A stretch of 64,000 nt of DNA from Naegleria gruberi. Lineage: Eukaryota. A program made the translations under genes and the position numbers. The DNA lies in the NCBI GenBank assembly GCA_000004985.1, contig GG738861.1; one strand, given 5' to 3'. Below are positions 21,245 through 56,663 of the stretch, piece after piece. The notes below the pieces were generated by a model. The model saw only the letters and a list, made by a program, of their open reading frames with translations, did not search any database and was not told where the DNA came from. Numbering within the stretch: position 1 is the first letter of the stretch; every line of letters begins with the position of its first letter.

Positions 21245-21585
21245 ATGTTTCCACAACAAGCTCCACGGATTGTGGTAGAGATAAAACTTGGTAACACAGT
21301 TGCTCAATTGTTTCCAGATGGTAGCTTGAGTAATGGTTCAACCAGTATTACTGATTTCAGCGCAGTTGCACTAAACAAGCAAAACAAGCAAGTATGGGGG
21401 TTTGAAAATGACAAAGTTAAAATATTGTGCAATCAAAACCACGTTTGTAGTTATGGTCAAGTCAACCACTTGATAACAGGCAAGGGATTAAATAGGCTTC
21501 GTTCTCTTTACAATCTCGTAATAACAAAATATCTCCAACAACAGCCAAACATCACCGTTCCCAGAACCAATGCTGGTGACACCAN
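21245..21585 (+). CDS. 5' partial CDS of a hypothetical protein, interrupted by a 1020-N gap
   Basis: An ATG-started open frame of 113 codons runs into the gap. No recognisable domain. Confidence 0.3.
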
Positions 21586-22605
21586 NNNNNNNNNNNNNNN
21601 NNNNNNNNNNNNNNNNNNNNNNNNNNNNNNNNNNNNNNNNNNNNNNNNNNNNNNNNNNNNNNNNNNNNNNNNNNNNNNNNNNNNNNNNNNNNNNNNNNNN
21701 NNNNNNNNNNNNNNNNNNNNNNNNNNNNNNNNNNNNNNNNNNNNNNNNNNNNNNNNNNNNNNNNNNNNNNNNNNNNNNNNNNNNNNNNNNNNNNNNNNNN
21801 NNNNNNNNNNNNNNNNNNNNNNNNNNNNNNNNNNNNNNNNNNNNNNNNNNNNNNNNNNNNNNNNNNNNNNNNNNNNNNNNNNNNNNNNNNNNNNNNNNNN
21901 NNNNNNNNNNNNNNNNNNNNNNNNNNNNNNNNNNNNNNNNNNNNNNNNNNNNNNNNNNNNNNNNNNNNNNNNNNNNNNNNNNNNNNNNNNNNNNNNNNNN
22001 NNNNNNNNNNNNNNNNNNNNNNNNNNNNNNNNNNNNNNNNNNNNNNNNNNNNNNNNNNNNNNNNNNNNNNNNNNNNNNNNNNNNNNNNNNNNNNNNNNNN
22101 NNNNNNNNNNNNNNNNNNNNNNNNNNNNNNNNNNNNNNNNNNNNNNNNNNNNNNNNNNNNNNNNNNNNNNNNNNNNNNNNNNNNNNNNNNNNNNNNNNNN
22201 NNNNNNNNNNNNNNNNNNNNNNNNNNNNNNNNNNNNNNNNNNNNNNNNNNNNNNNNNNNNNNNNNNNNNNNNNNNNNNNNNNNNNNNNNNNNNNNNNNNN
22301 NNNNNNNNNNNNNNNNNNNNNNNNNNNNNNNNNNNNNNNNNNNNNNNNNNNNNNNNNNNNNNNNNNNNNNNNNNNNNNNNNNNNNNNNNNNNNNNNNNNN
22401 NNNNNNNNNNNNNNNNNNNNNNNNNNNNNNNNNNNNNNNNNNNNNNNNNNNNNNNNNNNNNNNNNNNNNNNNNNNNNNNNNNNNNNNNNNNNNNNNNNNN
22501 NNNNNNNNNNNNNNNNNNNNNNNNNNNNNNNNNNNNNNNNNNNNNNNNNNNNNNNNNNNNNNNNNNNNNNNNNNNNNNNNNNNNNNNNNNNNNNNNNNNN
22601 NNNNN
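21586..22605. other. Large assembly gap (1020 N)
   Basis: N run. The ORFs predicted across it are artefacts. Confidence 0.95.
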
Positions 22606-28429: not shown

Positions 28430-31250
28430 CATTATAATAGCAATTATTTTCTTCAACGGTTGATCCACAGTTTAATTGGTTCAGTGGAACAGAGTATTCT
28501 GGTGTGCTTTCATTGCAAATGTTCCGTTAACGTTGTATTGCAAATACAAATACCATTTACACATGTTCCGTTACCATAACAGGCATTTTCTTCCAATGTT
28601 TCACCACATTTAATTGGTTCAGGATGTGGGATAACTGGTTCTGTATTTGTTTCATTGCAATATGTACCATTAATGTTTGAATTACAAATACAGACACCAT
28701 TAATGCAAGTACCATTTCCATAACAAATATTTTCATATTCAGTGATACCACATTTAACAACTGGTTCTGGTTGAGGTGTTGGAGTTTCAGAAGTCTCATT
28801 ACAGAAGGTTCCATTAACGTTTGTATTACAAATACAAATACCATTTACGCATGTTCCATTTCCATAACAATTATTTTCCTCAATGGTTGTTCCACATTTA
28901 ATTGGTTCAGGTTGTGGAATTATTGGTTCAACAATGGTTTCATTACAGAAAGTACCGTTTGAGCCACCTAAACATGAACAAATACCATTCAAACAAGTTC
29001 CATTTCCATAACAATTATTTTCTTCAACGGTTGATCCACATTTAATTGGTTCAGGTTGGGGAATTGGAGTTTCTGGAGTTGTTTCATTACAGAATGTTCC
29101 GTTTACATTAGAGTTGCAAATACAAATACCATTTACACATGTTCCGTTACCATAACAGGCATTTTCTTCCAATGTTTCACCACATTTAATTGGTTCAGGA
29201 TGTGGAGTAACAGGTGCTGATGTTGTTTCATTACAATATGTACCATTAATGTTTGAATTACAAATACAGACACCATTCAAACAAGTTCCATTTCCATAAC
29301 AATTATTCTCATCTTCAGTGAAACCACATTTAACAACAGGTTCTGGTTGAGGCTCATGACTTGTTTCATTACAGAAGGTTCCATTAACGTTGGTAATACA
29401 AACACAAATACCATTCATGCAAGTTCCATTTCCATAACAATTATTTTCTTCAATGGTTGATCCACATTTAACTGGTTCAGTTGGAATTTGAGGTTCTGAA
29501 GCAGTTGTTTCATTACAGTATGTTCCGTTCATACCCTCAACACAGATGCACAATCCATCAAGACATGTGCCGTTACCATAACAATTGCTTTCTTCCTGAG
29601 TTGTACCACAAATAATTGGTTCAGGTTGTGGAGAATCAGAATTTGTTTCATTGCAATATGTACCATTTACGTTTGAATTACAAGCACAGACACCATTGAT
29701 GCAAGTTCCATTTCCGTAACAGTTGTTTTCTTCCATGGTTGATCCACATTTAACTGGTTCAGGATGAGGAATTGGAGTTTCAGGAGTTGTTTCATTACAG
29801 AATGTTCCGTTTACCTTTGAATCACAAACACAAATACCATTTAAACAGGTTCCATTACCGTAACAGTTATTTTCTTCCAATGTTTCACCACATTTGACAG
29901 GTTCTGGTTCTGGAGTAACTGGTTCTGTAGTTGTTTCATTGCAGAATGTGCCATTAACATTCTCAAAACATACACACAAGCCATCAACACAAGTACCATT
30001 TCCAAAACAGTTATTTTCTTCTTCGGTCGAACCACATTTAACTACTGGTTCTGGTTGAGTTGGATCTTGAGTTGTTTCGTTACAGAATGTACCATTCACG
30101 CCAATAAAACAAATACAAACACCCTCAATGCATGTACCGTTACCATAACAAGTATTTTCTTCTATAGTTTCACCACATTTGACAGGCTCAGGAACAACTG
30201 GATCTGGAGATGTTTCGTTACAGAATGTACCATTAATATTCTCGTTGCAAACACACAAACCATCAACACATGTTCCATTTCCGTAGCAGCTATTTTCTTC
30301 TGTTGTTTCGCCACATTTAATTGGTTGAGTTGGAACTTGAGGTTCAGTAGGATTAGTTTCGTTACAGAATGTACCATTAACATCTTGATTACAAACACAG
30401 AATCCATTTACACAACTTCCATTGTTGTAGCAATTATTCTCTTCCAAAGTTTCACCACATTGTAAAGGTTGTGGAATTTCAGGTTCTATATTTGATTCAT
30501 TACAGAATGTACCATTTGCGCCTTCTTTGCAAATACAGGAGCCACCAATACAAGTGCCATTACCATAGCAGTTATTTTCATCTTCTGTAAAACCACATTT
30601 AACTGGCTCTGGTTGAGTTGGGATTTCAGGAGCTGTTTCGTTACAGAAAGTACCATTAGCGCCTTCAATACAAACACACAGTCCATCAAGACATGTTCCA
30701 TTACCATAACAATTACTTTCTTCCTGAGTTGTACCACAAATAATTGGTTCAGGTTGGCTGGGAACTGGACTGGTTTCGTTACAGAATGTACCATTACTAC
30801 CTTCATTGCAAGTACAAAAACCATTCTCACACGTACCATTGCCATAACAATTATTCTCTTCTTCTGTAGTACCACATTTAACCAATTCTGGTTGTGGTTC
30901 CATGCTGAAGGTTTCATTACAAAATGTACCATTAACATTCTCGTTACAAATACACAAACCATCGACACATGTACCATTACCATAACAAATATTTTCATCT
31001 TCTGTGAAACCACAGTTAACTGGTTGAGTAGGGACTTGTGGTTCTTGAGTTGTTTCATTACAGAATGTACCATTCACACCTTCAATACATATGCAGAAAC
31101 CATCGACACATGTACCATTACCATAACAATTTTGTTCTTCCAATGTTTCACCACAAGTGGTAATGGTATCATTACAGAATAAACCAATGAAACCTTCTGA
31201 ACATTGACAAACACCACGAGTACAATTACCATTAGAATAGCAAGATTGTT
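28430..31250. repeat. Tandem array of about 24 x 129-bp coding repeats (43-aa Cys module)
   Basis: The periodicity is visible in both the nucleotide and the protein sequence. Units are roughly 70-95% identical. Confidence 0.85.
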
Positions 31251-31428
31251 CATCTAATGTTTCACCACAGAAAACATCCTGACATTCCATTGTACCCAAG
31301 AGGTCACATGTCTGGGACAATAAACATTCAGTGTCTGAACTGCATGTTGCTGATACGAGACCAACAGCAGCAATTACAGAAAGTACAATTAAAAGTATTG
31401 TTGTTTTGAACAGCAAGTTACTTGCCAT
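28510..31428 (-). CDS. N-terminal part of the same giant gene: signal peptide plus about 22 tandem 43-aa six-Cys repeats, VKCG.T.EEN.CYGNGTC..G.C.C....NGT(F/Y)CNET, with Pro/Thr/Glu linkers
   Basis: ATG at 31428 begins MASNLLFKTTILLIVLSVIAAVGLVSA, a signal peptide. The repeats are highly regular, about 129 nt each, with three N-glycosylation sequons per unit. Confidence 0.75.
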   Translation of the reverse strand: MASNLLFKTTILLIVLSVIAAVGLVSATCSSDTECLLSQTCDLLGTMECQDVFCGETLDEQSCYSNGNCTRGVCQCSEGFIGLFCNDTITTCGETLEEQNCYGNGTCVDGFCICIEGVNGTFCNETTQEPQVPTQPVNCGFTEDENICYGNGTCVDGLCICNENVNGTFCNETFSMEPQPELVKCGTTEEENNCYGNGTCENGFCTCNEGSNGTFCNETSPVPSQPEPIICGTTQEESNCYGNGTCLDGLCVCIEGANGTFCNETAPEIPTQPEPVKCGFTEDENNCYGNGTCIGGSCICKEGANGTFCNESNIEPEIPQPLQCGETLEENNCYNNGSCVNGFCVCNQDVNGTFCNETNPTEPQVPTQPIKCGETTEENSCYGNGTCVDGLCVCNENINGTFCNETSPDPVVPEPVKCGETIEENTCYGNGTCIEGVCICFIGVNGTFCNETTQDPTQPEPVVKCGSTEEENNCFGNGTCVDGLCVCFENVNGTFCNETTTEPVTPEPEPVKCGETLEENNCYGNGTCLNGICVCDSKVNGTFCNETTPETPIPHPEPVKCGSTMEENNCYGNGTCINGVCACNSNVNGTYCNETNSDSPQPEPIICGTTQEESNCYGNGTCLDGLCICVEGMNGTYCNETTASEPQIPTEPVKCGSTIEENNCYGNGTCMNGICVCITNVNGTFCNETSHEPQPEPVVKCGFTEDENNCYGNGTCLNGVCICNSNINGTYCNETTSAPVTPHPEPIKCGETLEENACYGNGTCVNGICICNSNVNGTFCNETTPETPIPQPEPIKCGSTVEENNCYGNGTCLNGICSCLGGSNGTFCNETIVEPIIPQPEPIKCGTTIEENNCYGNGTCVNGICICNTNVNGTFCNETSETPTPQPEPVVKCGITEYENICYGNGTCINGVCICNSNINGTYCNETNTEPVIPHPEPIKCGETLEENACYGNGTCVNGICICNTTLTEHLQ

Positions 31429-32134
31429 ATTTTTTTCAATTCGAATAGTTTTAGCATGGTAGCTAATAAGATTTTAATGGCAAGGGAATTGTTGTGTGAA
31501 ATGAGCCAACAAGTCACGTTACAATTTCATAGGATATTTGTTGAACAGTGCATTTGCCAAGTACCAACAAGATTAAATTGCTTAAATAAGCCAACAACAT
31601 GTCAACAATCCTCGTCACGGAATTTTCACAATTACGAATTCGTCTTGCATCATCATTCAAGTTGCAATTCCTCACTAAATCACGGGAAACACAGTTTCCT
31701 CTTCTTGCCATAAAGTGACCACATCTTTCACACCTTCTAACATTGGCATTTCCACTTCTGTCCTCACTAAACGAACAAAAGGAAGTTTCCAATGTTTGTG
31801 GATGTAAAATTTCGATGGAGCAAAATTAACTTCCTATTAAGAGTCGTTTTAAATCATGATGAACTTGTCTCATTTCATGTTCAGTATTCATTAGCAACAT
31901 TCAATTCCGAAACGTGATAAAAACTGTAAACTTTTCATCTACAGTTTCTTACTTACTTTCCGAGCCAAATTTTCTCATCAATTCTCCTGGTTAAAGAGGG
32001 GTGGCCGAAGAATTATTGAGGCAACACCATATTTCATCCAACAAACGACAACTACAGTACGGCTCAAACAACAATTATTGGCTGGAAAGAAAGCACCCCT
32101 CAAGATTTAAATGAATTTCAAAGCCGAAAAGATG

Positions 32135-32620
32135 AAAAAAAAAATATTCAACAAATAATCCGTTGTGACTTGCTGATTTTCAGAGTGATTTCACATCATG
32201 AAAGCACCAAACTTTCACATCAGCATCTCAACATCATCCGAATAGTAATAACAATCATTGTTTTTTATTAGTGGATTATTATCAGCAAATAGGAATTTAT
32301 TTTTAAAGTTGGAAAAATACCAGTTGGTGAACCATCATATGAGCACTCACCAACCATCATCATTATTGTTTTCCATCAATATAATAATAGTATTTGTGGA
32401 AATTAATTTTTAGTAATGTAATTTTGGTTGAAGAGCCAAAATTTTCACTAAATCCATCATCACTGCTGAATCTACTGAACAAGTTGGAAAACTGTGAATG
32501 TAGTATTGTTCGGAATTGTCAATAGGAGGCAGGAGAACTTTCTCTGATTCTACTACTATTTAAAATAGATAATAAACATCATATTTATTATCAGATTTTC
32601 ATCATGTTCTATTGCCCTAT
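32135..32620 (+). repeat. Dispersed ~0.5-kb non-coding repeat, copy 2
   Basis: See copy 1. It has the same orientation and also lies in a 5'-flanking/intergenic position. Confidence 0.8.
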
Positions 32621-32739
32621 CATCATTGCAATAATATAATTAATGAAAGACTTCCAATACGGCCCAAACCATTTGCACCACCCAAACAATCAAGTTTGCG
32701 ATTGAAAGATTTTCAAGTTTGCGATTGACTCTTCAACAC

Positions 32740-34310
32740 ATAAAGTAAAGTATTCAGATTGATTTTAATTTTACATAATAGTTTTATTACAAACAAGTTT
32801 TTGTTGTTTGTTTGGGAGAATTGAATTGTTTCAAAATCAATAGATTTAGAAACACTTTCTGTGGACAATACCTGGACCGGCATCCTCATATTCTTCCTTG
32901 GTGATCCACATTTGTTGGAAAGTGGACAATGAAGCCAAGATGGAACCACCAATCCAGACAGAGTACTTTCTTTCAGGTGGAGCAACAACCTTAATCTTCA
33001 TGGAAGCTGGAGCCATAGCAGTCAATTCCTTGGTCATTCTTTCAGCAATACCTTCGAACATAGTAGTACCACCAGACAAGACAACGTTACCGTACAAGTC
33101 CTTTCTGATATCAATATCACATTTACCAATAGAGTTGAAAGTAGTTTCATGAACACCAGCAGCTTCCATACCAATGAAGTTTGGTTGGAACAAAACTTCT
33201 GGACATCTGAATCTTTCATTACCAACAGTGATAACATTACCGTCTGGCAATTCGTATGACTTTTCAACAGATGATGATTCAGCAGCAACCTTCATTTCAG
33301 CTTCGAAATCCAAAGCAATATAACAGAGCTTTTCCTTAATATCTCTGACGATTTCTCTTTCAGCAGTAGTATTGAATGAGTAACCTCTTTCCATCAAAAT
33401 CTTCATCAAGTAATCAGTCAAATCACGGCCAGCCAAATCCAATCTCAAAATGGCGTGTGGCAAAGCATAACCTTCATAAATTGGAACAGTGTGGGAAACA
33501 CCATCACCAGAGTCCAAAACAATACCAGTGGTTCTACCAGAAGCATACAAGGACAAGACAGCTTGAATAGCGACATACATAGCTGGAACTGAGAAGGTTT
33601 CAAACATAATTTGAGTCATCTTTTCTCTGTTTGCCTTTGGATTCAAAGGAGCTTCAGTCAACAAGACTGGGTGTTCTTCTGGAGCAACTCTCAATTCATT
33701 GTAGAAAGTGTGATGCCAGATCTTTTCCATATCGTCCCAATTGGTAACAATACCGTGTTCAATTGGATACTTCAAAGTCAAAATACCTCTCTTTGATTGA
33801 GCTTCATCACCAACATAGGCATCCTTATTACCCATACCAACCATAATGGACTTTTGCTTTGGTCTACCAATAATTGAAGGGAAGACAGCTCTTGGAGCAT
33901 CATCACCAGCAAAACCAGCTTTACACATACCAGAACCGTTATCGACAACGAGGGCTTGAACGTCTTCACAGAATGACATTTTATAGATTATTTGAATGGA
34001 TTTGTTTTTTTTGATTTTTAATTGATGATTTGTGTGTTAAAAAAATATTTAAATGAAAAATTAATGAAAGAATGATTGATGTGATTGATGGCAAGTCAAA
34101 TTGAAGTTTTAAAAAACTATTTTAGAGGTCATTTTTTAAATGTGGAAAGTCAAGTGAAGAAGAACAACTTTACAATATGACTTTTCATTCTTTTCATTCA
34201 ACACATCATCAAAATTACTAGCAATCAACTGTAAAATTTAACACATCAAACATTGCTTTGTCAACTTACTGTAATTTTCAACGTGGAAAAAATTCATCAA
34301 GTTTGAATGA
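32740..34310. repeat. Left arm (~1.57 kb) of an inverted duplication containing an actin gene
   Basis: This arm is the reverse complement of 40160..41730. The flanks match (for example ctattttagaggtcattttttaaatgtggaaagtcaagtgaagaagaac) and the 3' flank matches for ~100 bp past the stop. Confidence 0.85.
32846..33979 (-). CDS. act: Actin (377 aa, intronless)
   Basis: Sequence begins [41 protein letters not shown]...IVHRKCF. It is a canonical conventional actin, closest to amoebozoan actins. Confidence 0.95.
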
Positions 34311-35072
34311 AACCAACTTCGTCATCATGGAGGAACTAACAGCAACCAGGAATTAATTTATTGTTAGGATTGTGGTCAAGAGACGAAATTAACAAAATTG
34401 TCTCACCCTATATATTCATTGATGCATCAGTGATTCGCATTCTTGTTGTGGTGAGTCCTCTATGGACTTTGATTGGATTGATACTTGGTAATCGGATTCT
34501 CCTTCTTAATACCTCACAAATGGGAATAAGTTTTCTTCTGATTTTCAATTCCCAAGACTAGTATTTATTGTGGTCAGTCTTTTTGGCCTTACACTTGATA
34601 AGTGTGATCTACTGGATTTGGCCAAAATCATCAATAACACTGCCTCGTATCTGCTTGTTGGAATGCCAATTTTTTTAAGTTGGAAGTGCTTGTTGTTATT
34701 AAGAGAGTAATCCAAACAATAATCATTCCTCAATGGTTGTGATATTTTTGATATTTTAGACACAAAGTGGAATTTAATTTGGCTTCAGGTAGGCCTAATT
34801 GCTCTTTTTCCCAACATGAAGATTGTTGGAAACAATACTATGGAGAAAGAATAATAGATTTGGAATTGACCTATTTGGTCCTAATTGCTTGTGGATATTA
34901 TGAGTTTTTTATTGTTTTCTTAAAATTTGAGTTTCACCAATATTTGGATATTTTATTTATTACAAAGCCATACTACGGGGCAAAACATCAATCAACAAGT
35001 GAATGTTCAAGTAATTTCAATAATTGAGCAAAGTTCATCCATCACAATAAATTATTTACAATTCATAAAAAA

Positions 35073-35975
35073 ATGTCTCAAACAACAGTAAAGAATCGTT
35101 GCCCTCACAGAGTTTGGTATCGATTGTATGAATCCGATGATGTAAACTTTACAGGAAAAGACATTGCATCAGGTGAACAGCAAACTGTGGAGGGTGAATT
35201 TAAATCAGTGAAGGGATTCAAGTGGGAGAGAGGAGAGGATGAAGTTTGGGAACCAACTTTTAAAAGTCTATTAGAACCACAAGATGCTTGGAATTATCAC
35301 GTTGATTTGACTTCATTGTTTGGATGTAGACCTGCTAGCTCAATCAAAGTGTTCATGGCATGTTTGGCTGGTCCAGCAGATCCAATGACAAGGAATGACA
35401 TTATTCTCATCGATAAATTACATAAAGAGATTGGTGTACCAAGGGAGAATATTTGGATGTTTTTGGAGAGACAATGTACACCAAATGCAATTTATGAATC
35501 ATTGAAGGTGGCTGCCGAAATTTGTAATGATGAAAATGATATCCTATTTGTTTATTTGGGAGGACATGGAAGCAGAAAACAAAGTGAAGTTTATCAAGAA
35601 AGTGGAAACAAGTTTGAATATAATTTGGGAACTTGGGGAGGATCTACTCCTAGCTCACTTGTTTTGAAAGCAATTCAAAATGTAAAGTGTCCTGTTTTTA
35701 TGGTAGTGGACTCGTGTTATAGTGGCCAAATGATTGATGATGCAAAGAGTTATTTCCTTCATGCACCTCTTGCTCATGAGTTGTATGTTTTAACTTCAAC
35801 TCAGAATGACAAGTCAGCTCAAACTGGCTGGAGACTAATTCAAATGTTGATTGATATCATGATTGAAAGATCAAAGAGTATTACAATTACTCCTACTCTG
35901 ATAGGAAAGACAATTTCAGAAAATTTGAGAACCCCCTATGAAGAACAACGATCTCAATTCCAAATTATTGAATAA
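35073..35975 (+). CDS. Caspase-family (C14) peptidase, metacaspase-type catalytic dyad, with an uncharacterised N-terminal ~150 aa
   Basis: The catalytic His lies in ILFVYLGGHGSRKQ and the catalytic Cys in PVFMVVDSCYSGQMIDD. A p10-like STQNDKSAQ matches the metacaspase SGCQDNQTSAD region. Single exon with a real ATG at 35073. Confidence 0.6.
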   Translation: MSQTTVKNRCPHRVWYRLYESDDVNFTGKDIASGEQQTVEGEFKSVKGFKWERGEDEVWEPTFKSLLEPQDAWNYHVDLTSLFGCRPASSIKVFMACLAGPADPMTRNDIILIDKLHKEIGVPRENIWMFLERQCTPNAIYESLKVAAEICNDENDILFVYLGGHGSRKQSEVYQESGNKFEYNLGTWGGSTPSSLVLKAIQNVKCPVFMVVDSCYSGQMIDDAKSYFLHAPLAHELYVLTSTQNDKSAQTGWRLIQMLIDIMIERSKSITITPTLIGKTISENLRTPYEEQRSQFQIIE

Positions 35976-36366
35976 GTAACTGGCCCACAACAAATCTCCC
36001 AAAATCATATTCGAATGATGAACGAGATCTACAAAATGAGAAATAAACATTAGTCTCCATTATGTCTGTAAACTGTCCCATTCAAGGAAGGGTTCAGAAA
36101 GATATGGAAAATTTGTCAAACAGTCAAACTGCATTATTGCAATGTATTTCAAGCAATTTATTTCATGTTCATTTCTTGAGATATTTGGTAGTAATGTAAA
36201 ATGTGTTTCCAATTATTAAATATCTATGTAACATTATAATTATGAACGAAATCACTTCAGTTAAATTTTGACGATGAAAACAATTCTGAAAATAGCATAA
36301 CTTTAAAAAACATAAATTTTTGCCATCAACTTTTAATGTCCAACCATCAAATCAACATAAAAAAAA

Positions 36367-37116
36367 ATGCAACCCATTCAACCACCAAACAAACAATCAT
36401 CATCAGCAACACCTTCTTTCCTTAATTCTCAGCAACGGAACCAACATGATGAAAAACAACCTGTGAATGATAATGAAGAACAAGATGAACTAAATTTATC
36501 AATTTATGAAGAGGATAATATCAGCACAGATGATGAATGTCATGATAATGGAATTTCCAATTTATCTTTGCATTCCAATCATCAAGAAGATGAAACAGAG
36601 GATGCATCTCCACTTGAGGAATTGAACAAATTCGTCTTCAACATTCATGCTTTCAGAGGTGAATTGTTAATGAATGAGACAAGTAATAATGCCACTATTC
36701 AAGTTTACAAAAATACAAATTATAGCTGTAGAAATTCAAATTTCAAGTTACATGATATTCCCTTGATATTCTTGGATGGTTGTAAAGATAATGTATTTTA
36801 TTGTAAGAAACATTGTGAGAAAGTGTATTCACATTCGAATCTCCATACCACAATTGACAGATTAGGTGGATCCACAACAAGAATTACAGCATTTGGACTT
36901 TCTTTATTGAAGAAGGCAATGGTGCTGATAAACAAGGAATCGAATAGTTTTGATACACTGCTATCTAATCATGCTCAACAGCTGGCTTTGGTTTCGTATA
37001 CAGGATTGATGCTAATGGCTAATAAGAAGAAGAATCAACCTGAATGGGACGAAACTGAATTATCTTCCTTTTACAAGCACAAGTTTATTATTGTATTGAA
37101 GGGAATTACTTTATAA
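36367..37116 (+). CDS. Hypothetical protein (249 aa) with an acidic/Ser-rich N-terminus
   Basis: ATG-started ORF with coding-like codon usage. No recognisable domain. Confidence 0.45.
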   Translation: MQPIQPPNKQSSSATPSFLNSQQRNQHDEKQPVNDNEEQDELNLSIYEEDNISTDDECHDNGISNLSLHSNHQEDETEDASPLEELNKFVFNIHAFRGELLMNETSNNATIQVYKNTNYSCRNSNFKLHDIPLIFLDGCKDNVFYCKKHCEKVYSHSNLHTTIDRLGGSTTRITAFGLSLLKKAMVLINKESNSFDTLLSNHAQQLALVSYTGLMLMANKKKNQPEWDETELSSFYKHKFIIVLKGITL

Positions 37117-37153
37117 CTCAAATTGTTGTAATCATAAATTCGAATATTAAAAA

Positions 37154-37513
37154 ATGTCATATCTTCAACTCCCCACAGAGATGCACCACCAGATTCTATC
37201 CTATTTATCACCTTTTTGTGAATTATTCCACAATCAAATTGGTGGAAAACACTTGGATCCATTTATAAAGTTCATTCCGATAATATTGAACTTTCGATTG
37301 ATTCATCCAAATTATTCGAAATTAATTTCAAAATATGTAGATGAATTTTGTTGGAGTTTATTTGGAAATATGATGGATACTTATTCGATAGAACCCAAAG
37401 AAATTGATTTATTGAAAATTAAATTCACCAAAATTGGAATTGTGAAAAGTTTTGGTTCCTTTATTCATCTGATTCGAACAAGAGAAAAACAAATCCGATT
37501 CATCAGAAATTAA
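37154..37513 (+). CDS. F-box-like N-terminus (LPTEMHHQILSYLSP); a small protein, or the N-terminal part of a fusion with the downstream GTPase domain
   Basis: The ATG at 37154 is real. The LP.E....ILSYL.P match to the F-box consensus is moderate. The downstream frame opens at 37473, before this ORF's stop. Confidence 0.4.
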   Translation: MSYLQLPTEMHHQILSYLSPFCELFHNQIGGKHLDPFIKFIPIILNFRLIHPNYSKLISKYVDEFCWSLFGNMMDTYSIEPKEIDLLKIKFTKIGIVKSFGSFIHLIRTREKQIRFIRN

Positions 37514-38180
37514 ACTCTTTCTACTGGGAAGTGTGTACAGTGGCAAAACCTCAATTATTAAGAGATTTGTTTATAATCAGTTCACACAAGGTTATGAATC
37601 ACCTTCCTGTTTTTATGAAGAATTCAAACAAACAATTTCTATAGATCAAAGAGAAGAATCCATACTCTTAATAGATTCATTTGGGATCCTTAGTCGTTTC
37701 CTTCCATTTGAAGAACGTTATTATTGTAAAAAGATTAATTTCAATGTTTTGGTAATTGTTTGCTCAATGACGGAATATGAAAGTTTGCATGATTTGAAAC
37801 AAATATTGAGGAGATTTGTGGATGATAAGGGATTGAATGCTCCTTGTGTTGTGGCCATTAATAAGTGTGATCTTTTTCATCATTGTGTGGTTGATATAAG
37901 GGAGGTTAATGAAATTGTGGAAAATTTTGGATTGACTGATTATAAAATTATGGAGACGAGTGCAAAAACAGGAAAGAATATTGAAGAATTAGTGGAAGAA
38001 TGTGTTAGAAAGTTTAGAGAACGATTGAGAGATGTAAAAAGTGTTGTAGAACAAGTTCTGTTATTGGATCAAGAGGAGAAAGATGACAGAATGAGTATTT
38101 ACAAGATGGTGTTTATACCTCTTTGCTTTCTTTGGAATTTGATACTAAACTCGATTTTTCTCTGGAAGCTTAATGAATAG
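37473..38180 (+). CDS. Ras-superfamily small GTPase domain (G1 GSVYSGKTS, G4 NKCD, G5 ETSAK) with degenerate switch II (DSFG, no Gln) and no ATG in this frame
   Basis: The frame is open from 37473 (FEQEKNKSDSSEIKLFLLGSVYSGKTSIIKRF...). The ORF-track start at 37533 is a GTG. The domain is probably joined to the 37154 ORF by a frameshift or intron. Confidence 0.5.
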   Translation, partial: FEQEKNKSDSSEIKLFLLGSVYSGKTSIIKRFVYNQFTQGYESPSCFYEEFKQTISIDQREESILLIDSFGILSRFLPFEERYYCKKINFNVLVIVCSMTEYESLHDLKQILRRFVDDKGLNAPCVVAINKCDLFHHCVVDIREVNEIVENFGLTDYKIMETSAKTGKNIEELVEECVRKFRERLRDVKSVVEQVLLLDQEEKDDRMSIYKMVFIPLCFLWNLILNSIFLWKLNE

Positions 38181-38949
38181 AATCTCACCGACACGGAATT
38201 CACTAGACAAGTTTTCATTATTTTATGAAACAGAAAGGATAACCTTCTTAATGTTTCAAAAGATGCTAATCAAATAATTGGAAATGTTATAATCTATCAA
38301 CATTTCATTCTGTGGATCATCTTCTGAAATTCTGAATTGAATAGCAATGGAGCTTTGTTTAAAAGATAACTTGATAAGATTTGTTAATTAATTATAATTT
38401 ACAATTTTTCATGACTAACGTAATTCTCAACAATAACATACCAATTTGAAATTTGGTAAAACTGCAAATAGAATATTTTATTGGAAAGAAAAATAAAGGA
38501 GTCTAACCTTTGACTATTTTCTCGATGGAATTAGGAGATAAGGTTTTGAAAATTGGCAGATATGTTGATTACATACCAGTCTTCATATTATGAAAAAAAT
38601 TTTAAATTAAATAGTGAAGATAAAGTTAAAAATTAATCTCGAGTGCCGGGAATTGAATTTCCTAATTTGGAAGATGACTTCAACAACCAAATAACAATAA
38701 TAAATTGGGTTATTAAATTAATGTTTATTAAATAGTGACCGTTAGGTCACTGATTGTTAATTAATTATTGATGATGATTTGTTGTTGAACAGATACTAAC
38801 CACCACCGATTGTTGTCATAATATTAAACACAGAGTAATCACCGTGTCGCCAAATTCCTTGATAATTATTCATAACTGTAACTTCTTGATCAAAAGGCAC
38901 TCGAGCAATAAACAATTTGATTTCACACAGCCAAAACTCTCGTTCATAC

Positions 38950-39092
38950 TTTGGGTACCGGGAATGAAATTTCCAAATAAGGAATGACCGATATCATTCA
39001 ACTATTACTAACTCATACTCACACTAACAAAACAAATTGAACCCGGGTCGCCAGAGTGACAGTCTGGAATGCTACCACTATACCACACCCGA
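38950..39092 (-). tRNA. tRNA-Asp(GUC) gene interrupted in the T-loop by a 66-bp insertion (probably non-functional)
   Basis: The 5' part at 39092..39035 reads TCGGGTG TG GTATAGTGGTA GCAT T CCAGA CTGTCAC TCTGG CGAC CCGGG TTCAATT. After the insertion, 38968..38950 supplies TTCATT CCCGG TACCCAA A. The acceptor stem pairs 6 of 7. Confidence 0.6.
38969..39034 (-). mobile_element. 66-bp insertion in the tRNA-Asp T-loop; a short member of the family that also interrupts tRNA-Gly
   Basis: The insert is TGTTTTGTTAGTGTGAGTATGAGTTAGTAATAGTTGAATGATATCGGTCATTCCTTATTTGGAAAT. Its first ~40 nt and its GGAAAT 3' end match the ends of the 1334-bp Gly insertion. Confidence 0.5.
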
Positions 39093-40159
39093 TTTCATAT
39101 TAAGTGATAAATATTATTGAATATATAGACGTATTTTCAACAATTTTAAATAATTCTACCAACACCAATCCTGTGGTGAGATCCAGTTTCAAACCCTTTT
39201 AAAGGCATCCATTGCCCATCAGTAATTATAAACGAGTTGATCTCACAATAGTTCCTCGGACAATATTCCAATTTCCTTCAACACGTATTCTTCTTCCAAT
39301 CTCTCAAGCCTTTCCATAAATTGCAATACAATAATGATTCAGAAGTATGAATAAATTCAATAGTATCACATTTACATATAGTACATTTAGAACATGATCA
39401 GCACAGCCATTAGTTTCCCAAATTCCACTCTCTGAAAATCTTAAAGATTCAGTACTATCAGTCTCGTGTAGAAATTAACAAGAATACTGTGATAATTCAT
39501 TCACTCACAGAATTCAATTCAGTAGGTGAAAAGACAGGAAAGTTAATTTGATCTACCTTAAAATTGGTTTCCATCTTTGTCTAGAATATCACCTTAATTC
39601 ATTGAACAAGGGAATTTTCTAGAATATACATGTTAACTTTGCAAGAGCTTATTTCAAAAGATCAACTCTTGACACAAGTGGAAAATTAATCAACTCAAAT
39701 TAACAATGCTGTTCAATCACTGATGTCAAATATTAAAGGGTTCATCCCTATCCCCAATTACTATTCTCTTAAAATCACATAACTTTATCCAAAATGATTT
39801 CCAGTGTTTTCCCTTCTTCATTCCAGAATTAACTGAAGAAATATCATCCACTCAACTAATCATCTCAATAATACATGTGTTTATCTCAAATTATAATGTA
39901 AATATATCCACAGCACACAATGTTGCAACTTGAATTGATTGGAAGAGTAGAGTCACTTTGGGATGATTAAATTTGTTGTAGCCTCTCCACTAAATGTTAA
40001 ACCAACAACAACAATAATACCATCCAATGATAATCAACAATTGACGGCCCTCCAACTAGAAAGGGACAAGAAATAACGATGTGATATTACTATCAATATG
40101 TATGTGGTGGGAATTGTGTGAGCAGATGCAAGAATATTGTAGATGAAGGTTTTCTATTT

Positions 40160-41730
40160 TTTATCAAACTTGATGAATTTTTTCCATGTTGAAAATTACA
40201 GTAAGTTGTTAATTGCAATGTTTGCTGATTGTTTGCTCGTAATGTTTGATGATGTGTTGAATGAAAATAATGAAAAGTCATATTGTAAAGTTGTTCTTCT
40301 TCACTTGACTTTCCACATTTAAAAAATGACCTCTAAAATAGTTTTTTAAACTTCAATTTGACTTGCCATCAATCACATCAATCATTCTATCATTAATTTT
40401 TCATTTAAATATTTTTTTAACACACAAATCATCAATTAAAAATCAAAAAAAAACAAATCCATTCAAATTCTATAAAAATGTCATTCTGTGAAGACGTTCA
40501 AGCCCTCGTTGTCGATAACGGTTCTGGTATGTGTAAAGCTGGTTTTGCTGGTGATGATGCTCCAAGAGCTGTCTTCCCTTCAATTATTGGTAGACCAAAG
40601 CAAAAGTCCATTATGGTTGGTATGGGTAATAAGGATGCCTATGTTGGTGATGAAGCTCAATCCAAGAGAGGTATTTTAACTTTGAAGTATCCAATTGAAC
40701 ACGGTATTGTTACCAATTGGGATGATATGGAAAAGATCTGGCATCACACTTTCTACAATGAATTGAGAGTTGCTCCAGAAGAACATCCAGTCTTGTTGAC
40801 TGAAGCTCCTTTGAATCCAAAGGCCAATAGAGAAAAGATGACTCAAATTATGTTTGAAACTTTCTCAGTTCCAGCTATGTACGTCGCTATTCAAGCTGTC
40901 TTGTCCTTGTATGCTTCTGGTAGAACTACTGGTATTGTTTTGGACTCTGGTGATGGTGTTTCCCACACTGTTCCTATCTATGAAGGTTATGCTTTGCCAC
41001 ACGCCATCTTGAGATTGGATTTGGCTGGTCGTGATTTGACTGATTATTTGATGAAGATTTTGATGGAAAGAGGTTATTCATTCAATACTACTGCTGAAAG
41101 AGAAATTGTCAGAGATATTAAGGAAAAGCTCTGTTATATTGCTTTGGATTTCGAAGCTGAAATGAAGGTTGCTGCTGAATCATCATCAGTTGAAAAGTCA
41201 TACGAATTGCCAGATGGTAATGTTATCACTGTTGGTAACGAAAGATTCAGATGTCCAGAAGTCTTGTTCCAACCAAACTTCATTGGTATGGAAGCTGCTG
41301 GTGTTCATGAAACTACTTTCAACTCCATTGGTAAATGTGATATTGACATCAGAAAGGACTTGTACGGTAACGTTGTCTTGTCTGGTGGTACTACTATGTT
41401 CGAAGGTATTGCTGAAAGAATGACCAAGGAATTGACTGCTATGGCTCCTGCTTCAATGAAGATTAAGGTTGTTGCTCCACCTGAAAGAAAGTACTCTGTC
41501 TGGATTGGTGGTTCCATCTTGGCTTCATTGTCCACTTTCCAACAAATGTGGATCACAAAGGAAGAATATGAGGATGCCGGTCCAGGTATTGTTCACAGAA
41601 AGTGTTTCTAAATCTATTGATTTTGAAACAATTCAATTCTCCCAAACAAACAACAAAAACTTGTTTGTAATAAAACTATTATGTAAAATTAAAATCAATC
41701 TGAATACTTTTTGTGTTGCGAAAGAGAAAT
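40160..41730. repeat. Right arm of the actin-containing inverted duplication
   Basis: Reverse complement of 32740..34310. Confidence 0.85.
40478..41611 (+). CDS. act: Actin (377 aa), second copy, protein identical to the 32846..33979 copy
   Basis: The protein is identical. Off-frame ORFs differ at a few residues, so the nucleotide differences are synonymous. Confidence 0.95.
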
Positions 41731-42004
41731 TGAAATCTTTAACAAACTTCGAATAGGTTCAAAGTTATTATAGACAAAACTTGGAAATGAACTAAATTAA
41801 TCTTCCCTTAAATCAAAAAGATTCTCATTTACTCTCAAGCCCTTAAATAGTCATCATCAACATGTTGACTCTCTCTCGAATATTCGTCATCACCAACAGC
41901 ACGGAAGTTTAGGATGACGCACAAAAAGATATTATTCGTAAATAATGTACTTATGAATAAAATATATTTGGATCTATTCAAAAGGATCTAAAATAGAAAA
42001 AAAA

Positions 42005-44138
42005 ATGAGCAAACAAGAATTGCAGGAAACCATTGAAAAATCAACTAGCAAGACTGCTGCTGATGAGAGCAGTTTTGAAGAGGAAGAACATGAGGATATC
42101 ACTGCAGATGAACAAGTATTGCAAGATTTTTACAAGAAGGAAGCTCAGATTAAACAAGCTACTAAACCAAAGGAAGAAAAGCCGGTTGCTGCTTCTACTT
42201 ATGAAGATCAGGGAGAAGGTGCACATATGATTGAAATGCCATTAGATAAAACTAAGCTTTCCAAGACTGATATTAGGTCATTGCACAAAGATGAAGTAAA
42301 ACAAGCTAGAAAGGAATTGGACAAGCTTCCGAAGCCTCAAACTTTCCCAAATCATGCTGAAATTAGTTTCTTTGGTGCTTCAGGTACTGTTACTGGTAGT
42401 AAGCACATGATTACTTATGGATCTTTGAATGCTTTGATTGATTGCGGAATGTATCAAGGTTTGAAGGAACTTAGGTATGTTTTTTAATTCTTTCATTTGT
42501 TTTAATTAGATTAATTATCAAAGAGAGAGAAACTGGAAATTAATTTCATCATCAAAACCTGTTGAAACAATGTGTGATGCCATCATTATTACTCACTCTC
42601 ACTTGGATCACACTGGTTATCTTCCAAGGTATGTTTTTTATACAATGTTTTGATACAAATGAAAATTAAAACTATCAAAAATCATCAATCGGAATGAATA
42701 ATTTAATCTTCAATCATCATAATAATATCAAAATAGAATGGTTGCTCTTGGATTTACTGGACCAATCTACATGACAGAACAAACATTTAATTTGACCAAA
42801 CTAATCTTGTTGGATTCTGCTCGTTTACAAGAAGAAGATGCTCACTATGCCAATCACAAAGAAACTACTAAACATGAGGTTGCCCTTCCACTCTATTCCG
42901 AAGAAGATGTTCTCAACTGTTTCAAGTTGGTGAGAACTGTCAAGTATGGAGAAAAAATTGTTGTTAAAAGTAGATTGGATGAAGACAAATTCAGCTTTAA
43001 ATACTTTAATGCAGGACACTTGTTGGGATCATCGTTTGTTGAAATTACTCTTGACACAAAGGAAAAGATTATCTTTTCAGGAGATTTGGGAACTTTCCAC
43101 ACCTCCACTCCAATGCAACAACAACCTCAATTACCAATGGGAGCTGATTATGTTATTTGTGAAGCTACTTATGGTGGCAAGTCACACATTGATTTTGCAA
43201 CTGGTAGAGCTGCTGAGGATCAAGATTACATTATTGAAACTAAGGTTAAACCAGCGTTGAAACAAGCTGTTGAACATATTGTGGAAAATGATGGTGTAAT
43301 TCTTATTCCAGCTTTTGCCATTGGTCGTTCTCAAACTATTGCTTATCACTTGTTAAAGATGATGAGAGAGAAGGAAATTCCAACACTTCCTGTCCACATG
43401 AACTCTCCAATGTCAGTTGAAGCTCTTGATTTTTATCAACAATATTTATTGGACGAACATCAAAAGGATGCACACGAAATTTTGAGAGATGTCATTTGCC
43501 ATAATAGTGCTAAGGAATCTAAGGAACTTCACAAAAAGCTCAAGGATGGTTATTCTAAATGTGTCATTATCAGTAGTAGTGGTATGATGACAGGTGGTCG
43601 TTGTTTATTCCACTTTGAAGAATTGGCTCCTCATGAAAAGAACGTTCTCTTATTGAGTGGTTTCCAAGCTGAAGGTACAAGAGGTAGAGACTTGCTTAAT
43701 GGTGTCAGAGATATCAAATTATTGGGCAAGACTGTCAATGTTAAATGCCAAGTCATGCAAGTCCAAGGTTTGTCTGCTCACGGTGATACTGATGATGTTA
43801 TTAAATGGATTGAGGCTGCCAAAAATCCAAAACCAAAGATGGTTTTCGTTGTCCACGGAGAACCAACCTCACTCCGTAGTATGGCTAGAGAAATTTGTGT
43901 TGAATTGGATGTTAATGCTCTCGTTCCAAAGAGAGGTACAACATTCCACATGAGAACTGAACTCTCCTTCAGTCACAGTAGAAGAGCTAGTGTTGTTTCA
44001 ACCAATAACAGTTTACAAGATGTCATTTCAAGCAATATGCCTGATATTCCAAAACTTGGAAAGACCAATATGGTTCACGTGATGTATGCTGGTATTATTT
44101 TAATTGCCTTTATTGCCTTCCTTTTAAGATTCTTTTAA
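42005..44138 (+). CDS. Metallo-beta-lactamase fold / beta-CASP family hydrolase (RNA-processing nuclease-like) with a K/E-rich N-terminus and a C-terminal TM anchor; 3 exons
   Basis: Exons are 42005..42475, 42510..42628 and 42736..44138, separated by GTATGT...TAG introns that I traced by hand. Motifs are GASGTVTGS, HSHLDHTGYLPR (HxHxDH), FSGDLG, CEATYGG and VVHGE. The sequence ends MVHVMYAGIILIAFIAFLLRFF, a tail-anchor-like segment. Confidence 0.7.
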
Positions 44139-48813: not shown

Positions 48814-50001
48814 TTAAGGTTGAAAACAATCGAAAAATCGTTTCTTTCTCTGCAATGCTTCACATCCATATTCCTCATAATCCGCCATAGCAACAGCCAT
48901 TTCTGCGAAGGACTCAAGGGAACCAGCAATACTTCCTCCAATCCATGATGAGTAACGTCTCTCAGGAGCTGCCACCACACTTAATCTCAATGATTTTGGT
49001 ATTAATTGTGCCAAATCATGTCTAATTCTGTCTGCCAGTCCAGGAAGGAGCGAAACTCCTCCCGAAATGATAATATTATTGTAGAGACCGTAGCGAGTGT
49101 CAATGTTTGATGCTTGCATGCTGTCTTGAATAATATCAACAATTCCTGGATATTCAGAATTAATTATTTGAGGATTGAAGAGAATTTCATTACATGTGAA
49201 ATGTTCATGAGATAGATTTAACACTTGACCATCAGGTAGCTCATACTGTTGATGTCCTTCACTAGACATTCGACTATTTTCATATTCTCTATCATAATCC
49301 TCTGCAACACGACCAATTTTCCTAATCATTTGATCCACAATTGACCTATTCCCTTCCAAACAAATTCCATGATTTTCACTCAACATTTTAATCATGTAAT
49401 CTGTAACATTGGCTCCTCCAAAATTAATCCTCCTCGTTGTATTATTATCTACAAATCCCCAATAACATGGCACTATCTGAATCACACCCTCTCCCAAGCA
49501 TAAACTCAGTGCCGTCGTTGTTCCACATGCATAGACAGACATGAGAGGTTGTGGAGAGCAGGCAAACGATCCAAATCCATACTTTTCAAAGAATAATTGC
49601 ATTAAATGATTCTTCTGTGAGGAGGGTTGTAAAATTGAATCAATGAATAGTATTGATCTCGATTCATTGTCTGAAATTTCACATTCAGAATTTTGAGTAT
49701 TTTTTGAGAGAATTTCTTGAAAGGTATAATCAAGTAAAATTTCCATCAAATCCCAATTTTTAATAATTCCATTTCGGATGGGATAGTTTAGATTGAGAAT
49801 TCCTTCTCGTTTAATTGCCTGATCACCAATATAACCTGATTTCATAGTGCAATCACTAATCATGATGGGTGAATATTTAGGTGTTCCGATACAGGAAGGA
49901 AAGACACAGCTGGGTGCATCTTCTCCTGCTATGCCTGCATAGAATGTGCTTGAACCGCAATCTAAAACGAATACTTCTGGCCACTCATCACTGAATGACA
50001 T
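48814..50001 (-). CDS. Divergent actin-related / actin-like protein (395 aa)
   Basis: The actin fold is recognisable (VLDCGSSTFYAGIAGEDAPSCVFPSCIG, LPDGQV, ISGG, SSWIGGSI) but it has insertions and is only ~30% identical to actin. Confidence 0.7.
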   Translation of the reverse strand: MSFSDEWPEVFVLDCGSSTFYAGIAGEDAPSCVFPSCIGTPKYSPIMISDCTMKSGYIGDQAIKREGILNLNYPIRNGIIKNWDLMEILLDYTFQEILSKNTQNSECEISDNESRSILFIDSILQPSSQKNHLMQLFFEKYGFGSFACSPQPLMSVYACGTTTALSLCLGEGVIQIVPCYWGFVDNNTTRRINFGGANVTDYMIKMLSENHGICLEGNRSIVDQMIRKIGRVAEDYDREYENSRMSSEGHQQYELPDGQVLNLSHEHFTCNEILFNPQIINSEYPGIVDIIQDSMQASNIDTRYGLYNNIIISGGVSLLPGLADRIRHDLAQLIPKSLRLSVVAAPERRYSSWIGGSIAGSLESFAEMAVAMADYEEYGCEALQRKKRFFDCFQP

Positions 50002-55251: not shown

Positions 55252-56663
55252 TGCGTCGACCGGGAATTGAAATTTCCTTTTTTGGAATTCATTTAACTTT
55301 TAATTTTATGATGAAATTATGAATTATTTATTTTAATATTATTCATGATGTGAAACATCATGTTGAATTCTGTTCATTATTTTTAATTCATGATGTGAAA
55401 CATCATGTTGAATTATTAACAAATGTTGTTCTTCAATTTTTCATTGAATGTTGTTCTTTCAATGAATGTTGGAATAAGTGTCCAGTATATGATAGAATTG
55501 TTAATACAAGTAAGTTTTCTATTATTTTATATTTATTAATTGACTCACGGGTAATGGAATTTCCTTTTTTGTAAATCATCATGATTGATGATGATTGATG
55601 ATGATTAAATAATAATAATTTATTATTTTATAGATGATGGTACAATTAGATTTGTTAGTACATATCCTAATTGTATTTTAAAGAAAGAAAATTCACCAAC
55701 TAAAATTGAAGATATTATTCGTGAATATGAAGATGTAAAAGTTGTTTTAAATGAATTAGGTAAATCAACAACAAAAATTTATTCATCAGATACAACAAAA
55801 CATATGAATTTCCTAAAAGTTTTATTTATTTATGTAATGGTAATATTAAATATGATCAATCATTAAATATATCACAAGGAATTTATACAATTAAAATTCA
55901 AGATGATGAACATGATCACAAATATTATTATTTATTCGGAAGAGGTTTATTATTTCTATCAATTACATTACAAATGATTCCAACATTTAGTTTAAACAAG
56001 TATTATTATGAAATTGTATTGAATGATTTAAGTAACACATATTTTGATAAGAATGAAATTATTCAATATAAAATTGAAATTTTGCCATCAAATATTATTC
56101 AACAATATTCTAAACGAAAGTTTCTTGTTAGAAAAGATAGTCAAAAGAACTCAAGATTTATTACATATCAACCTGACGCTCAATCACCATCAAAGAAAAC
56201 AAAGAAGAATAACATTATTGAAAGTGATATTGAAGATTTCGATTGCAATATTAAAGATATTGATGATTGGGTATAGGGAAACGGAATTTCCTAATTGGGA
56301 ATGTCATCACACAATAAATTAAATTTATTATTTATTCATTGATGTTCACAAACTGTGAATTAACACATTACATGATGAAACAATTCAAACATTTACTCAA
56401 ACTTTAAACATTAACCATCGGGTAACGGATTTTAATACATGTACTAGTATGTTTATTAATTGGTCGACGCACATAAATTTAAATAAACAAAATTAACAAG
56501 ATTTTAAACAAAATCCTACATAGAGTTGGAGAACGGGAAATGAAATTCCCAAATTGAAATTGAGAAACAACTATTCATTTCACAATAATTCATACTATCA
56601 AAATGAATTGAACCCGGGTCACGGCGATGGCAACGCCGTATTCTACCACTAAACCATCGACGC
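55252..56663 (-). tRNA. tRNA-Gly(GCC) gene split by a 1334-bp insertion in the T-loop
   Basis: The 5' part at 56663..56606 reads GCGTCGA TG GTTT AGTGGTAG AATA C GGCG TTGCCAT CGCCG TGAC CCGGG TTCAATT. The 3' part at 55271..55252 reads TTCAATT CCCGG TCGACGC A. T-stem and acceptor are perfectly complementary, and TTCAATT is present at both junctions. Confidence 0.8.
55272..56605 (-). mobile_element. 1334-bp insertion in the tRNA-Gly T-loop, probably composite. Contains AT-rich ORFs and several internal 'GGAAAT + tRNA 3'-end-like' junction motifs
   Basis: It starts CATTTTGATAGTATGAATTATTGTGAAATGAATAGTTG..., similar to the Asp insert start, and ends ...CCAAAAAAGGAAAT next to the duplicated TTCAATT. 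There are no terminal inverted repeats. It carries a 100-aa ORF (55974..56276) and palindromic tcatgatgtgaaacatcatg direct repeats at 55343 and 55389. Confidence 0.55.

Follow-up and report, generated by a model that had tools for sequence, protein, structure and literature searches.

The palindromes P1–P8 of the human Y chromosome and the FLNA/EMD inverted repeats at Xq28 undergo gene conversion from arm to arm, and large inverted repeats invert their spacers in organelle genomes, in the yeast 2-micron plasmid and at human Xq28. A second line of comparison comes from gene families that encode one protein many times over. Naegleria gruberi possesses over 20 actin genes and Dictyostelium 17 identical actins (PMC7594500), while the alpha-tubulin of N. 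gruberi is specified by about eight near-identical intronless genes that encode a single protein (PMC2115128).

Here we describe two actin genes of N. gruberi that lie on the arms of an inverted repeat. A literature search for an inverted arrangement of adjacent actin genes found no description of one. The locus was analysed within a window of 64 kb, the complete stretch of 64,000 nucleotides taken from contig GG738861.1. We regard it as likely that the two genes are a real and ordinary pair of paralogues from a large actin family, kept identical in protein sequence by purifying selection, and that no special genetic device is at work.

The Inverted Repeat

The actin arms form the sole large inverted repeat in the window and were detected by two methods. 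The repeat lies about 33–42 kb from a (TTTGGG)n telomere and contains no assembly gap, the closest run of N being at 21585-22605. Its parts are as follows.

32683-32746, no strand: residual inverted similarity outside the left arm, about 60 bp and weak (~70%), partner of 41711-41770
32747-34306, minus strand: left arm, 1560 bp; it extends from the actin coding sequence 99 bp into the 3' flank and 327 bp into the 5' flank
32846-33979, minus strand: left actin gene, intronless, 377 aa, protein identical to N. gruberi actin records
34307-40163, no strand: unique spacer of 5857 bp between the arms
40164-41710, plus strand: right arm, 1547 bp, inverted partner of the left arm
40478-41611, plus strand: right actin gene, intronless, 377 aa, identical protein, probably EFC45736
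41711-41770, no strand: residual inverted similarity past the right arm, partner of 32683-32746

These measurements agree with the first-pass annotation of this DNA, which had placed inverted arms with about 330 bp of 5' flank and about 100 bp of 3' flank around a spacer of 5.9 kb. Its description of the genes as head-to-head also stands, the left coding sequence being on the minus strand and the right one on the plus strand, so that the genes are divergent and both start codons face the spacer.

Counting gaps, the arms are 96.4% identical (1509 identical positions, 40 substitutions and about 10 small indels, the indels mostly at A/T runs in the 5' flank), and they match without interruption over at most 184 bp. 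There are eight substitutions plus indels in the 327 bp of 5' flank inside the arms and no differences at all in the 99 bp of 3' flank. The arm alignment that had been proposed as a check points to a conversion-like signal only at the start of the coding sequence, over its first ~185 nt. At the outer boundary, identity is 100% over 117 bp and then falls abruptly to ~70%; the score of the residual similarity beyond this point was reached by 2 of 2000 shuffles. The abrupt step could mark the edge of a conversion tract. A comparison of the two ends of the spacer past the arm boundary found no similarity.

The scaffold is a gapped draft, and one arm might be a spurious duplicate or an allele put in the wrong place. 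We consider such an artefact very improbable. The 40 substitutions and ~10 indels make reads assignable to a single arm, unique sequence stands on both sides of each arm with no gap nearby, and a metagenome contig obtained independently from a related strain (L002, 95–98% identity) also contains the junction between left arm and spacer. The numbering of the NEG-M annotation would likewise fit two actin models at the locus. The runs of N and the exact protein matches suggest, however, that the window is the NEG-M draft scaffold itself, so we do not treat this fit as independent confirmation. The NEG-M protein records that existed before this analysis cover the right actin and two of the spacer genes.

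The Actin Genes and Their Divergence

The 377-aa protein matches the Pfam Actin family (PF00022) over residues 5–377 with E=1e-147 and 492 bits (cut-off 27), and is identical to four GenBank records (EFC36529, EFC37355, EFC38601 and EFC45736). All 26 coding differences between the arms are synonymous and fall in third positions (dS 0.115, dN 0), an outcome with a probability of about 4e-18 under random substitution; neutrality would predict about 95 non-synonymous differences, and none is observed. The first-pass reading of identical proteins with purely synonymous divergence was correct, and the counts support strong purifying selection acting on both copies.

This identity of the protein is not particular to the arm pair, because a third, dispersed actin locus (transcript L001), with unrelated UTRs, encodes the same 377 amino acids. 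The arms differ from L001 at 35 and 40 silent sites, again with no non-synonymous change, and the dS of either arm against the third copy is 0.16–0.19. At least three loci (left, right and L001) encode one identical protein and differ from one another at silent sites only. Judged from these comparisons, the identity of the actin protein is a family-wide outcome of purifying selection. L001, from the third locus, is the only actin transcript that was recovered.

Single-copy genes next to the repeat provide a yardstick for the age of the pair, as they differ between this genome and that of a second strain, strain X, by a pS of 0.03–0.05. The dS between the arms is two to three times this between-strain silent divergence. 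This suggests that the arms have been diverging freely for longer than the strains have, and that most of the actin gene has not been homogenised recently. Of the two possibilities named in the first-pass annotation, selection on both copies or homogenisation, the former is borne out by the 26 synonymous and zero non-synonymous differences, whereas homogenisation is unneeded or weakly supported, given a dS of 0.115.

Silent sites of the arms are about five times more diverged than their flanks (0.107 versus 0.02), and this excess had led us to consider ectopic conversion by dispersed paralogues. We dropped this idea as unnecessary, because between strains the single-copy neighbours, too, are three- to fivefold more diverged at silent sites than in intergenic DNA (0.03–0.05 versus 0.008–0.018).

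The start of the coding sequence behaves differently from the remainder. Its first 184 nt are identical between the arms, where about four silent differences would be expected (P ~0.01). Over the first 151 nt the left and right copies agree everywhere, and strain X differs from them at nine sites. In the 5' flank, the left arm is more similar to strain X than to the right arm; about two events there unite left and right to the exclusion of X, and 10–13 distinguish left from right (strain X being represented by 478 bp of one arm). The flank and the start of the coding sequence group the copies in opposite ways (Fisher p=2e-4), and these opposite patterns suggest that some gene conversion took place in one lineage or the other. 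Within the coding sequence, this hint of conversion is confined to the first ~185 nt.

One might take these observations further and view the locus as an old palindrome in which recurrent gene conversion between the arms, and not recency, keeps them about 97% alike. The identical start of the coding sequence, the opposite tree from the adjacent flank and the sharp outer step from 100% to ~70%, with ~60 bp of residual similarity beyond it, are all in keeping with this explanation. However, the 26 silent differences show an even distribution from coding position 186 to 1116, their dS exceeds the level between strains, and each arm is only modestly more similar to its partner than to the dispersed third copy. 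Furthermore, the strain X signal comes from the last 151 nt of a metagenome contig, and it would be explained equally well if another paralogue had converted the X copy. Taken together, these data make sustained conversion between the arms an unlikely explanation for their similarity.

The Sequence Between the Arms

The first-pass annotation had listed a caspase-like peptidase, two small ORFs, a GTPase domain and an interrupted tRNA in the spacer, and each of these is present.

35073-35975, plus strand: caspase-fold (clan CD-like) protein, 300 aa, identical to EFC45734
36367-37116, plus strand: predicted protein with no function assigned, 249 aa, identical to EFC45735, pN/pS 0.37 against strain X
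37154-37513, plus strand: ORF of 119 aa, 96% amino-acid identity in strain X, no Pfam match
37533-38180, plus strand: Ras-family small GTPase domain (PF00071, E=4e-18)
38641-39093, minus strand: tRNA-Asp(GTC) interrupted in its T loop by 384 bp of inserted sequence with TTCAATT on either side

The matches of the caspase-like gene to the Pfam C14 and C13 families remain under the curated cut-offs; 13 members of its family do match. His165 and Cys215 hardly vary among 21 homologues. For the AlphaFold model, which has a pLDDT of 92.6, the 27 best matches in the PDB are all caspases or MALT1 (E 5e-5 to 1e-3). The fold and the catalytic His and Cys support the prediction of a clan CD caspase-like peptidase. 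With a pN/pS of 0.06 against strain X, the gene is under purifying selection. The P-loop of the GTPase is cut at the start of its ORF, so an upstream exon is likely; the ORF at 37154-37513 probably provides the first exon of this gene.

Removing the 384 bp between the two copies of TTCAATT restores a canonical tRNA-Asp(GTC), which agrees with the earlier reading of an interrupted tRNA. The acceptor stem of this gene carries a G-U variant. As it stands, 38641-39093 does not form the contiguous cloverleaf of a functional tRNA, and neither ARAGORN, with introns allowed or not, nor Rfam called a tRNA in the spacer. Nothing on atypical tRNA introns in Naegleria emerged from a search of the literature. 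The predicted RNA fold of this region was uninformative.

Inverted ends around a unique core would also suit a mobile element, with actin genes lying by chance in its long terminal inverted repeats and the spacer genes as its cargo. Beyond the geometry, the observations run against this idea. None of the spacer ORFs encodes a transposase or integrase domain, and the window holds no further copy of the spacer. Nor is there a target-site duplication: the two outer flanks (left ...caacacataaagt, right ttgtgttg...) do not repeat each other in direct orientation, and the sequence outside the arms continues the inverted similarity with indels. The spacer genes evolve like ordinary host genes. A mobile element is therefore extremely improbable, and cargo, the term used for the spacer in the first-pass annotation, is a misnomer for ordinary chromosomal genes that come without recombinase, transposase or target-site duplication.

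The geometry, with 1.5-kb inverted arms 5.9 kb apart, would also permit homologous recombination between the arms to invert the spacer, in which case two orientations would coexist in populations or cultures. We consider this quite improbable. The order and strands of the NEG-M annotation match the orientation of the window, although both may be products of one assembly. Divergence between the arms is 3–4%, with no perfect stretch longer than 184 bp, and in yeast a divergence of this size strongly suppresses mitotic crossovers. A search of all spacer ORFs and reading-frame segments for recombinase domains, including those of site-specific recombinases, found none, and an inversion would have no evident regulatory effect, as the promoter of each actin gene lies inside its arm.

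In N. fowleri there is no actin beside the beta-CASP orthologue, and neither an actin nor a homologue of P0004 was found near a 59% homologue of the caspase-like gene; the absence of actin from both neighbourhoods suggests that the pair is lineage-specific. In the search for the right arm or its junction in another strain, two contigs with beta-CASP homologues (L003 and L004) end before reaching the arm, and a contig of 936 bp with a GTPase homologue (L008) diverges at 38144. Exact-protein look-ups with the spacer proteins found no NCBI contig, and a 21-mer conserved in the arm, run against JGI metagenomes, gave only a chance match (L009).

Discussion

The history that we favour for this ordinary paralogue pair would begin with the duplication, in inverted orientation, of one actin gene together with its own promoter region and 3' UTR. 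The event would be older than the split of the two sampled strains and would have enclosed 5.9 kb of ordinary chromosomal DNA between the arms. The pair belongs to a family of more than 20 actin genes and lies in a subtelomeric part of the chromosome. Both copies are intact and intronless and are putatively functional. Actin is an invariant cytoskeletal protein that is expressed at a high level, and purifying selection on it would purge every amino-acid change while silent sites drift. The two copies may add dosage, and their near-identical 5' flanks may allow them to be co-regulated.

If this history is correct, at least one of the many actin genes of N. gruberi arose through a local inverted duplication that carried promoter and UTR along. 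The pair provides a clean example of complete purifying selection, with 26 silent and no replacement differences, and the 26 diagnostic silent sites would allow RNA-seq to tell the expression of the two copies apart. The significance of the locus goes little beyond annotation, and current understanding is not challenged by it.

A more dynamic interpretation is that the pair constitutes a small, recombinationally active palindrome in which occasional exchange between the arms and with other actin paralogues shuffles silent variants at the 5' end of the gene, the same crossovers invert the spacer and orientation is polymorphic in N. gruberi populations. We think this rather unlikely. If true, it would make the locus a small, naturally occurring tool with which recombination, mitotic or meiotic, could be measured in an amoeba for which, to our knowledge, no sexual cycle has ever been observed. 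The inverted geometry lends itself to a simple PCR assay of recombination in Naegleria.

With the human Y palindromes P1–P8 and the FLNA/EMD repeats at Xq28 the locus shares gene-containing inverted arms around a unique spacer and a hint of conversion, here at the 5' end of the actin coding sequence. The Naegleria arms, however, are short (1.5 kb) and only 96–97% identical, and their silent divergence exceeds the level between strains; sustained homogenisation, the hallmark of such palindromes, is not seen. The flip-flop repeats of chloroplasts and of the yeast 2-micron plasmid likewise flank a unique segment with large inverted repeats, but the Naegleria locus is chromosomal and subtelomeric, its arms have diverged, and no dedicated recombinase was found. 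In terms of protein coding, the locus resembles the 17 actins of Dictyostelium and the approximately eight flagellar alpha-tubulin genes of N. gruberi itself, in which several intronless loci encode one exact protein and differences are confined to silent sites and flanks. Unlike those genes, the Naegleria actin pair is adjacent and inverted and still shares ~330 bp upstream and ~100 bp downstream of the coding sequence, and this shared flank suggests that the pair is a younger, local duplicate within the actin family.

Structure of the inverted repeat

The limits of one inverted repeat, whose arms enclose a unique spacer, came out alike in two repeat searches and in a gapped alignment; no other large inverted repeat was found in the 64-kb window.

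Features of the repeat and its spacer
32747-34306, left arm (1560 bp)
32846-33979 (-), left actin ORF, 377 codons, intronless
34307-40163, spacer (5857 bp)
35073-35975, predicted caspase-fold protein, EFC45734 (motifs, homologues, structure model)
36367-37116, predicted protein, EFC45735
37533-38180 (+), Ras-family GTPase domain
38641-39093 (-), tRNA-Asp(GTC) broken in the T loop
40164-41710, right arm (1547 bp)
40478-41611 (+), right actin ORF, 377 codons, intronless

The divergent arrangement described in the first-pass annotation is confirmed, with the start codons of both actin genes pointing to the spacer; the flanks, put there at about 330 and 100 bp, measure 327 bp (5') and 99 bp (3') in each arm. 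An alignment of the arms, the check suggested in that annotation, gives 1509 identical positions, 40 substitutions and about ten short indels, mostly in A/T runs 5' of the start codon, and one conversion-like stretch, the first 184 coding nt. The inner arm boundary is sharp, with no similarity further in. At the outer boundary identity is 100% over 117 bp and then about 70% for a further 60 bp, a drop that could mark either the edge of a conversion tract or the point where a constrained 3' UTR stops.

As a draft scaffold the window contains gaps, with N runs at 1862-1911, 16986-17035, 18627-18676 and 21585-22605 (50, 50, 50 and 1021 bp; listed ORFs within 21.2-22.7 kb are artefacts of the N gap), and the inverted repeat is located in gap-free sequence away from all of them. 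An assembly artefact is a very remote possibility: the two arms can be told apart, and unique DNA borders each of them on either side.

Both actin ORFs encode the same protein, which has a full-length Pfam Actin match (E=1e-147) and occurs unchanged in four GenBank records of N. gruberi. The two spacer proteins with EFC accessions exactly match those of N. gruberi strain NEG-M, and further exact matches assign the entire window to a single NEG-M scaffold of 507,294 bp. The NEG-M accession numbers climb along the window in two series, one for each strand. EFC45736, an actin, is next in number after these two plus-strand genes, and the minus-strand numbers 45848 and 45849, which were not seen, fit the Cys-rich repeat gene described below and the left actin. 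The scaffold gaps and exact protein matches suggest that the window is probably the NEG-M assembly itself, and the NEG-M annotation is therefore not independent evidence. An actin-related protein gene (48814-50001, -; EFC45850), 36% identical to actin, lies 7 kb to the right of the inverted repeat.

Selection and gene conversion

The 26 coding differences between the arms are all third-position and synonymous (19 transitions, 7 transversions; dS 0.115, dN 0), in keeping with the earlier claim of identical proteins with only synonymous differences. For 888 non-synonymous against 243 synonymous sites, about 95 replacement changes would be expected under neutrality, and none is seen; strong purifying selection has therefore acted on both copies ever since they separated, and neither is a pseudogene. 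Of the two forces proposed earlier, selection stands (dN 0), whereas recent homogenisation of most of the gene does not (dS 0.115). A transcript contig from a third actin locus specifies the identical protein; it departs from the two arms by 35 and 40 silent differences and has unrelated UTRs. The protein identity is thus not peculiar to the inverted pair.

The silent differences are evenly distributed across coding positions 186-1116. The yardstick is a related strain (strain X), represented by a metagenome contig that aligns to window 33829-37492 at 95-98%. Measured against strain X, the single-copy genes of the spacer show pS 0.03-0.05, with intergenic differences of 0.8-1.8%; between the arms, pS is 0.107 and the flanks differ by about 2%. 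The divergence of the arms is therefore two to three times that of the strains, which makes sustained arm-to-arm gene conversion unlikely as the main force. Conversion confined to the coding sequence, first suggested by the silent/flank ratio, is unneeded, since the single-copy control shows an equal silent-to-non-coding ratio.

Along the 5' flank, the left arm agrees in more states with strain X than with the right arm, which fits a duplication that preceded the separation of the strains. The start of the coding sequence shows the reverse pattern (Fisher p=2e-4): over coding nt 1-184 the arms are identical, and strain X is unlike both at nine sites. This reversal relative to the adjoining flank, read from 151 coding nt at the tip of the strain X contig, points to at least one probable gene-conversion event in one lineage.

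We therefore regard the observation as confirmed and its interpretation as supported in part. An ordinary inverted segmental duplication is the likely explanation: one actin gene would have been duplicated in inverted orientation along with its regulatory flanks, both copies would have been retained for dosage, and selection would keep the protein constant in both.

Contents of the spacer

The caspase-like peptidase, GTPase domain and interrupted tRNA reported earlier in the spacer were all recovered. In the first, Pfam C14 and C13 matches are below threshold and the top PDB sequence match is metacaspase-4; the motifs LGGHG and DSCYSG hold His165 and Cys215, nearly invariant in 21 homologues, and the structure model (pLDDT 92.6) has caspases or MALT1 as all 27 of its best PDB matches, which argues for a caspase-fold protein. 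Pfam recognises no domain in 36367-37116.

The GTPase domain is of the Ras family (E=4e-18). Its ORF begins within the P-loop, and the 119-aa ORF immediately upstream is therefore probably the first exon. No NCBI match to the resulting gene (37154-38180, +) was found, and the consecutive EFC45735 and EFC45736 leave no number for it; it appears to be without a NEG-M protein model. Conservation of the gene reaches 98% in a related strain, where a 1-nt indel near 37686 breaks the ORF. Contig L008 of that strain matches the window to 38144, where the match gives way to about 300 bp (L008:632-936) that are unrelated and encode the motif …KIARLIRVETLFSLPTIRKYMENQEKSKPGRPRYSGK, which by eye looks like a helix-turn-helix or transposase. 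The strains thus differ structurally within the spacer.

The tRNA finders call no tRNA at 38641-39093 as the sequence stands; excising in silico the 384 bp that a pair of TTCAATT copies enclose restores a canonical cloverleaf tRNA-Asp(GTC), called by ARAGORN. Within the insert, at ~38952-38974, is another fragment that looks like the 3' end of a tRNA (GGAAATTTCATTCCCGGTACCCA). The duplicated 7 bp have the look of a target-site duplication, so the gene was most likely killed by insertion; a long T-loop intron of an atypical kind is only a remote possibility. ARAGORN also calls a tRNA-Gly(GCC) at 56593-56664 (-), despite which Rfam, scanned across the whole window at the gathering threshold, gave no family at all; the tools disagree, a caution for any conclusion drawn from the Rfam scan.

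No recombinase or transposase was found in the spacer, whose remaining ORFs and reading-frame segments are without any Pfam match. The geometry of the repeat permits flip-flop of the spacer; however, the arms are 3-4% diverged, their longest perfect stretch is 184 bp and no enzyme for inversion is encoded, making this quite improbable. A transposon, lacking both a transposase and a target-site duplication at the arms, is extremely improbable.

Setting and distribution

The window opens with about 555 bp of (CCCAAA)n (1-555), a TTTGGG-type telomere tract, which places the actin locus 33-42 kb from the chromosome end. Subtelomeric direct repeats pair 636-1646 with 5394-6383 (71%) and 1660-1861 with 6280-6481 (99%). 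A further 420-bp direct repeat (11595-12012 and 32129-32548, 85% identity), without a convincing ORF, has one copy that stops about 200 bp left of the left arm. The gene at 28510-31428 (-) encodes a secreted-looking protein of 972 aa with some 20 Cys-rich (EGF-like) units in tandem, each 46-48 aa long, over DNA repeats with periods of 138-144 bp that are 60-87% identical.

Directly right of the right arm lies a beta-CASP/metallo-beta-lactamase gene (42005-44138, +). After Naegleria and Willaertia, its nearest homologues are all bacterial (Acidobacteriota and others, 35-40% identity), and the gene was possibly acquired from bacteria; the homologue search found no NEG-M protein model, and the gene may lack annotation in the reference. 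Its N. fowleri orthologue has no actin within 10 kb upstream, and in another amoeba none lies within 5.7 kb of a 59% homologue of the caspase-like gene. This suggests that the arrangement is limited to the N. gruberi lineage, where it appears to be present in at least one other strain (contig covering window 33829-37492).

The inverted actin pair is an unremarkable example of a known phenomenon. N. gruberi has more than 20 actins and Dictyostelium 17 identical ones (PMC7594500), and the alpha-tubulin of N. gruberi is encoded by about eight near-identical genes which, like the actin genes here, are intronless and specify one protein (PMC2115128).
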